7,708 nucleotides of DNA from a virus (taxonomy: Duplodnaviria; Heunggongvirae; Uroviricota; Caudoviricetes): the IMG/VR virus record IMGVR_UViG_2663763413_000006; one strand, written 5' to 3'. A program made the translations under genes and the position numbers. This document shows positions 4,580 through 5,251 of the stretch, piece after piece. The notes under the pieces are model-generated. The model saw nothing but the letters and a program-made list of their open reading frames with translations. It was not told the origin of the DNA and did not search any database. Within the stretch, counting starts at the first letter, position 1, and the number at the start of each line of letters is the position of its first letter.

Positions 4580-5095
4580 ATGTCTTCGGATGCTGATGCT
4601 CACAAAGTGGGCTTAATCCCCGTCACCCTGATGGTGTCGGGGAATATTATGGGGTCAGGTGTTTTTCTGTTACCTGCAAACCTGGCCTCCACTGGCGGGA
4701 TTGCTATTTATGGATGGTTGGTGACGATTATCGGTGCGCTGGGGCTCTCGATGGTATACGCCAAAATGTCGTTCCTCGACCCAAGTCCTGGTGGTTCTTA
4801 CGCTTACGCCCGCCGCTGCTTTGGCCCGTTTCTCGGTTATCAAACCAACGTCCTCTACTGGCTGGCCTGCTGGATCGGCAATATCGCCATGGTGGTCATT
4901 GGCGTAGGATATTTAAGTTACTTCTTCCCGATTCTGAAAGATCCATTGGTATTAACCATCACCTGCGTCGTGGTGCTGTGGATCTTCGTCCTGCTGAACA
5001 TTGTCGGTCCGAAAATGATCACCCGCGTACAGGCCGTTGCTACCGTGCTGGCGCTGATCCCCACCATCGGCAGTGGGAGGGCCGTATTTGATTAG
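4580..5095 (+). pseudogene. adiC: Arginine:agmatine antiporter AdiC, 5' portion only (about 165 of roughly 445 codons), truncated at a junction with phage-like DNA
   Basis: [65 protein letters not shown]...[16 protein letters not shown] matches recalled E. coli AdiC N-terminus (APC-family transporter). RBS aggag 7 nt upstream of the ATG. Sequence diverges after about 5065 and stops at TAG 5093-5095; the remaining two-thirds of the gene is absent. Confidence 0.85.
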
Positions 5096-5251
5096 ACTTG
5101 AGATAAATGACAGGGAATAAGTGAGATATTTATGGGAAGAACTGGGTCAAAATGGGAAGAGACTAGGAGGAATATGCAATAACCTTACAGTATGTGAAAA
5201 TCAGACCGGCCCGAAAAAAAAACAGAACTCGCGCCAGCCTGATTGCAGATA

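Follow-up and report, generated by a model that had tools for sequence, protein, structure and literature searches.

We analysed a 7,708-nt stretch of DNA (the window), which is the whole of draft contig AOQJ01000101.1 from assembly GCA_000397385.1, and found that the Escherichia coli gene adiC breaks off in it exactly at the terminus of a phage, at base 5089. The reading that we favour, with a probability of about 78%, is that a known BcepMu-like prophage inserted by ordinary transposition into adiC after nt 503, and that the deviating patches in the neighbouring host sequence are errors. The features of the window are given in Table 1.

Table 1. Features of the window, in order of position
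Feature	Position	Strand	Evidence or remark
F-plasmid traC, internal piece	1-293		100% to many IncF plasmids
Bridge, 23 nt (TGATCCTTAACTGATCGGCATTA)	294-316		matches neither the traC nor the melR side
E. coli chromosome: melR from mid-gene, adiA, adiY, 5' part of adiC	317-5088		
Stutter/error patches in adiA and adiY	1583-1658, 1903-1981, 3947-3996, 4038-4102, 4129-4138, 4246-4303, 4355-4389		
adiC 5' fragment (arginine:agmatine antiporter), native codons 1 to 168 (position 2)	4580..5088	+	99.7% to adiC of complete E. coli genomes; Pfam AA_permease_2
Corrupted patch within adiC	5064-5081		6 extra nt and mismatches against intact adiC; gives non-native residues TIGSGR
Predicted left copy of 6-bp target duplication, CGTATT	5083..5088		expected from 5/5 relatives; right junction outside the window
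Phage DNA	5089-7708		100% over 2,620 nt to PhiKM and the EC958 prophage
Conserved 27-nt terminus TGATTAGACTTGAGATAAATGACAGGG, Mor-proximal (left) end, begins 5'-TG	5089..5115	+	exact copies in 37 places
Phage terminal region	5089..5251		100% to PhiKM and EC958; GAGATAAATG-type motifs at 5100-5111 and 5123-5136
Hairpin just 3' of mor	5200..5243	-	MFE -29.4 kcal/mol for a 96-nt stretch, z = -3.8
mor (middle operon regulator family), 129 aa, the gene nearest to the phage end	5252..5641	-	Pfam PF08765 Mor, E=1.3e-43; Mor family also by annotation in EC958 and 97.3
gemA / gp16-family gene	5613..6062	-	Pfam PF06252 GemA, E=8e-41
Five further early-region genes: 68, 76, 227 (DUF2786/DUF7168), 71 and 98 aa	6064..7693	-	ORFs, Pfam; colinear with PhiKM, 97.3 and EC958

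Contig quality and the broken adiC gene

The contig is made of three unrelated blocks, from an F plasmid, the E. coli chromosome and a phage. No mobile-element signature was present around the first join (positions 1-316), and the passage from traC to melR at 294-316 bears the marks of a chimeric join made in assembly. Except in eight discrete patches, the host block agrees completely with reference genomes, and it matches several B2 genomes, SE15 among them, at 100%. Seven of the patches carry net insertions (+21, +49, +46, +52, +45, +20, and +6 nt), and the eighth, a small one, holds substitutions only. Those in adiA and adiY add mostly 20-52 nt net, with substitutions alone at 4129-4138. 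They consist of error-rich re-copies or exact 20-26-nt back-steps of the neighbouring sequence, with tandem periods of 20-27 and 48 nt. Through them, adiA falls into three ORFs and adiY is truncated; in a collection of 15 billion protein sequences, the products of these broken ORFs occur only as singletons. No such patch was found in the phage block.

We judged it unlikely that the patches are genuine microduplications, since there are eight of them within 4.8 kb of otherwise identical host sequence and none in the phage block, and since the broken ORFs are singletons. Those in adiA and adiY probably stem from read ends of low quality or from overlaps that were left unmerged. Moreover, the contig stops in unique phage sequence, just 2.6 kb into the phage. 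Because of the stutter patches and the artificial traC/melR join, we rate the contig as low-quality and partly chimeric.

The window matches intact adiC at 99.7% from the start codon at 4580 up to 5070, and the base-level alignment returns to native adiC sequence at 5082-5088/5090 (GCCGTATT[TG], where the reference reads GCCGTATTTGG). Host sequence can be followed without ambiguity up to base 5088, corresponding to adiC nt 503 and the second position of codon 168 of 445. An earlier note, made from the letters of this DNA, had placed the cut after about 165 codons and the breakpoint near 5090; the alignment to intact adiC bears out the former and corrects the latter by only 1-2 bases. The fragment covers profile positions 2-156 of 427 in its Pfam match, and adiC and the phage end have just 2-4 bases in common at the joint. 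The missing 835 of the 1,338 adiC nt were looked for across the window, and none was present elsewhere in it.

As written, the adiC ORF ends with a TAG stop at 5093-5095. It had been described as running into a non-native tail and a stop, and the tail does read that way; its residues AVF, however, are native AdiC 166-168, and the phage terminus (TGATTAG) contributes only an Asp and the TAG stop. The residues TIGSGR come from the patch at 5064-5081 rather than from the junction, and it is this patch that makes residues 162-167 deviate from AdiC. The patch lies only 8 nt from the junction and is most likely a sequence or assembly error; a clean form of the fusion protein occurs elsewhere (see below). 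We also considered whether 5057-5088 could be the flank of another locus falsely merged with adiC, and rejected this because the 32-mer had no match in 5,426 complete E. coli genomes (28 Gb).

The phage and its terminus

The DNA to the right of the joint had been called phage-like, and this is fully supported: the 2,620 nt from 5089 onward show 100% identity to Escherichia phage PhiKM (PQ738613; record taxonomy Caudoviricetes; Bcepmuvirus) and to a 37,048-bp prophage that sits in ycaL of the E. coli ST131 strain EC958. The transposase and ATPase genes lie outside the window and were read from the EC958 copy, whose common 2.6 kb shows 100% identity to the window. There, a 589-aa protein matches Pfam rve (E=1e-8) and its neighbour matches AAA_22 (E=4e-20). 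Judged on its identity to PhiKM and the EC958 prophage, the phage is an already classified BcepMu-like (Bcepmuvirus, phiE255-type) transposable prophage. BcepMu-type prophages are typified by TG...CA termini and a Tn552-related rve transposase (PMC2628397), and a Bcepmuvirus/phiE255-like prophage has been noted in ST131 (bioRxiv 10.1101/2022.05.07.487787).

The Mor-like gene that the earlier note saw on the opposite strand is confirmed by Pfam (Mor, E=1e-43) and lies 163 bp from the joint. The early operon ends with gemA and mor and is transcribed toward the left end, a layout that is also found in PhiKM, 97.3, and EC958. Mor adjoins the phage end because the early operon of the BcepMu-like family runs toward that end. 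Four small proteins of the early region (68, 76, 71, and 98 aa) had no Pfam match.

The 27-mer TGATTAGACTTGAGATAAATGACAGGG occurs exactly in 36 other loci besides the window, and every time the similarity begins precisely at the TG, here 5089-5090, which is the first dinucleotide of the terminus in all 37 copies. These loci come from Escherichia, Erwinia, Pantoea, Mixta, Trabulsiella, Pseudocitrobacter, and others, together with IMG/VR contigs. The 40 nt upstream of the 27-mer fall into 30 unrelated sequences among the 37 copies, window included. Such a use of many unrelated chromosomal sites points to transposition, not to site-specific integration at a tRNA or att site. Two statements about the joint did not stand. 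One was that no Mu-type terminal sequence or repeats mark it, whereas 5089-5090 is the canonical 5'-TG of a BcepMu-type end and repeat motifs are present; the other was that 5091-5251 is a spacer or mor-C intergenic region, and it is instead the terminal region of the phage.

The opposite, CA right end lies outside the window and is present in EC958 and in 42 IMG/VR loci, with flanks as diverse as those of the left end. Read inward, it is TGATGCGCCGCGCGATAAATGC and has in common with the left end TGAT and a G(A/C)GATAAATG motif at +12/+35. The GAGATAAATG-type motifs of the left end are mirrored in it at equal offsets, +12 and +35 from the TG, and the right end is an imperfect inverted repeat of the left one. 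These paired terminal motifs would be putative transposase-binding sites. All five relatives in which both ends were available carry 6-bp target duplications (GCACAT, ACTGGC, GGTAGG, TTCTTC, and CGTCAC).

The right end was defined from EC958 and the IMG/VR pairs, and E. coli 97.3 was left out owing to its Tn3/IS disruption. In that strain (NZ_CP061758.1, 1-8200), the prophage in nhoA has no normal right end, and Tn3-family, IS110-family, and IS66 elements with cargo genes follow the invertase/tail-fibre region. Among the 37 flanks, counted back from the TG, about half have A at -3 and about half have G at -2, and G is almost never seen at -4; this target bias is weak, and the counts include duplicate insertions.

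Between mor and the terminus, the hairpin has 15 pairs in all, in an 11-pair and a 4-pair stem with single-base bulges between. A consensus terminator scan called no canonical intrinsic terminator after mor, and the U9 run lies mostly in the loop, so we rejected the hairpin as one. According to the folding model, it is possibly a non-canonical terminator of the leftward operon, and it might limit phage transcription into adiC antisense.

The probable insertion into adiC and its alternatives

In the reading that we favour, the phage would be the one that sits in ycaL in ST131, transposed into adiC. Its rve-type DDE transposase, with the AAA+ partner, would join the 5'-TG of the Mor-proximal end to adiC after nt 503. 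This would split the antiporter at codon 168, with the Asp and the TAG stop coming from the phage end. Staggered cleavage of the target would duplicate 6 bp, predicted to be CGTATT. With such a duplication, the 3' part of adiC would be expected just after the other end of the phage: the remaining two-thirds of the gene should lie about 37 kb away (…GCGCATCA / CGTATTTGGCTGG…), and the right junction is predicted as GCATTTATCGCGCGGCGCATCA / CGTATTTGGCTGGTTCTGG, in which the CGTATT duplication is followed by adiC from nt 498 onward. For this strain, we infer both the duplication and the right junction.

Independent support comes from proteins. The clean product predicted for the junction, AdiC residues 1-168 followed by D and a stop (169 aa; P0011), was found exactly on seven public contigs from NCBI, Logan, and ENA, the longest of 40,057 bp. 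The match is one of proteins; on these contigs, the phage terminus (TGATTAGACTTGAG…) would be expected to follow codon 168. Given the presence of this product on seven other contigs, the adiC insertion is very probably genuine and heritable.

The phage end is present in 533 of the 5,426 complete E. coli genomes (~10%), always in the chromosome. Most of these insertions are in ycaL (junction …TTTAGTATTCTTC / TGATTAGAC), and the rest are in gspL, rayT, nhoA, and other sites. The Mor-side end abuts ycaL in EC958 and a truncated nhoA in E. coli 97.3; elsewhere, its neighbours are PP-binding, Ail/Lom, AllG, NarG-like, PsiF, and ThiF genes. A large assembly collection has 27,640 indexed blocks with the Mor protein, and their host neighbours vary. 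The junction of adiC with the phage was found in none of the 5,426 complete genomes, nor by exact-pattern scan in GTDB representative genomes, IMG/VR, or JGI metagenomes. An exact-pattern scan of metagenomes for the predicted right junction found nothing, and a lookup by Mor and its short flanks gave none but other sites of insertion.

Two records of related phages deserve mention. PhiKM (PQ738613) is labelled a partial genome, and at about 5672-6001 it holds some 330 bp of host-like DNA, annotated as an Fe2+ ABC transporter permease, between the tail-fibre gene and the left terminus. The record evidently has a transposable-phage host flank assembled into it and misses its true right end. In IMGVR_UViG_2654587728_000014, a right end and a left end lie 5.8 kb apart (2344 and 8162) and read in one direction, with inverted copies of a 6-mer (CGTCAC/GTGACG) beside them. 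This arrangement suggests an inversion via the invertase/tail-fibre region after a normal insertion.

The joint could be real and still belong to a minority of molecules, either as a replicative-transposition product of spontaneous induction or as host DNA on packaged phage, with adiC intact in most cells. A few reads of it would then have been assembled into a low-coverage leftover contig while the resident prophage sits elsewhere, for instance in ycaL. The contig does look like a leftover of few reads (error patches, a chimeric left join, an end in unique sequence), and its phage block is identical to an ST131 prophage whose usual site is ycaL. The B2 genomes that its host block matches at 100% include SE15, which we take to be ST131, and the PhiKM record shows host flanks assembled onto the terminus. 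However, a random lytic event would not recur as a clean fusion product on seven contigs, one of 40 kb, drawn from three data sources, and the attached host block of 4.8 kb exceeds the headful surplus expected for a 37-kb phage. We consider a minority product unlikely.

Mu-type elements are known to cause transposition-mediated rearrangements, and the joint could be the border of one (an adjacent deletion, an inversion, or a replicon fusion), with the 3' part of adiC deleted or distant. Relatives of the phage are indeed rearranged, as in the right end of 97.3 replaced by Tn3/IS and the inverted ends of IMGVR_UViG_2654587728_000014. The right junction was found in no collection searched, an absence that is uninformative because these collections also lack the left junction. 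With no positive evidence in the window, and with simple insertion being far commoner, a rearrangement seems quite improbable. A pure assembly or library chimera, in which no molecule ever joined adiC to the phage, might be suspected from the artificial traC/melR join and the many stutters of the same contig. Yet a false join would have to fall, in the right orientation, on base 1 of a phage of 37,048 bp, the 2-4 common bases are too few for a k-mer-driven join, and the identical fusion protein stands on seven other contigs. Despite the state of the contig, position, orientation, and few common bases make the joint appear credible, and we hold a pure chimera to be highly improbable.

Known relatives and biological meaning

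Compared with the BcepMu/phiE255-type prophage of E. coli ST131 (EC958, JJ1886, in ycaL) and with PhiKM, the phage has the same terminus, gene order (mor, gemA, DUF2786), and orientation at 100% identity. The sole difference is the insertion site, adiC codon 168 instead of mostly ycaL.

Like coliphage Mu, it is a temperate phage that integrates essentially at random by DDE transposition and inactivates the genes into which it inserts. It also resembles Mu in its 5'-TG...CA-3' ends with repeated transposase-binding sites (putative here), in its Mor and GemA homologues, in Gam, and in a G-segment-like invertible tail-fibre region. Unlike Mu, it has an inverted early operon, with the outward-transcribed Mor at the end in place of the repressor/transposase genes (c/A/B). 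The target duplication is 6 bp in its relatives, whereas that of Mu is 5 bp. Its transposase matches only the generic rve core, and that of BcepMu-type phages has been described as Tn552-related (PMC2628397). At the DNA level, Mu was absent from the megablast phage matches. On these features, the phage would not be placed in Muvirus, which is defined by a 5-bp duplication and by repressor, ner, A, and B at the left end, reading inward.

Tn552 has TG...CA ends and makes target duplications of about 6 bp. The phage is similar to Tn552-type transposons in these two respects and in having a DDE/rve transposase with an AAA+ neighbour; it differs in that the module belongs to a myovirus-type prophage of 37 kb, whose replication and packaging are those of a phage.

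Overall, this is ordinary biology: a known phage with known behaviour at a previously unlisted insertion site. As one more site of a well-distributed and classified transposable prophage, it carries little scientific weight. For curation, the lesson is that a single contig can mix a real transposon-end junction with artefacts (stutters and the traC/melR join), and that the odd residues belong to the artefacts.

For the bacterium, the consequence would be on acid resistance. Functional AdiC is an APC-superfamily protein of about 445 aa with 12 helices, and here only residues 1-168 are encoded, less than half of the transporter. Because such a fragment cannot form the 12-helix antiporter, according to established knowledge of AdiC, arginine-dependent acid resistance (AR3) should be lost. 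Other truncated AdiC proteins are present in public assemblies (P0002, P0006, P0010, P0012, and P0015; 155-175 aa) with differing non-native tails. These several independent truncations suggest that sequenced E. coli may have adiC interrupted in differing ways, whether by real events or by assembly breaks.

The adiC insertion shows that the ST131-type phage has moved to new sites. One could go further and propose that, through the interrupted gene, the loss of AR3 has become fixed in an extraintestinal E. coli clone now in circulation and defines it as a lineage. This proposal rests on the clean form being on at least seven public contigs, and we think it unlikely to be right. If the allele were fixed, it would represent pathoadaptive or niche-adaptive gene loss by a still-mobile transposable phage, not an incidental insertion.
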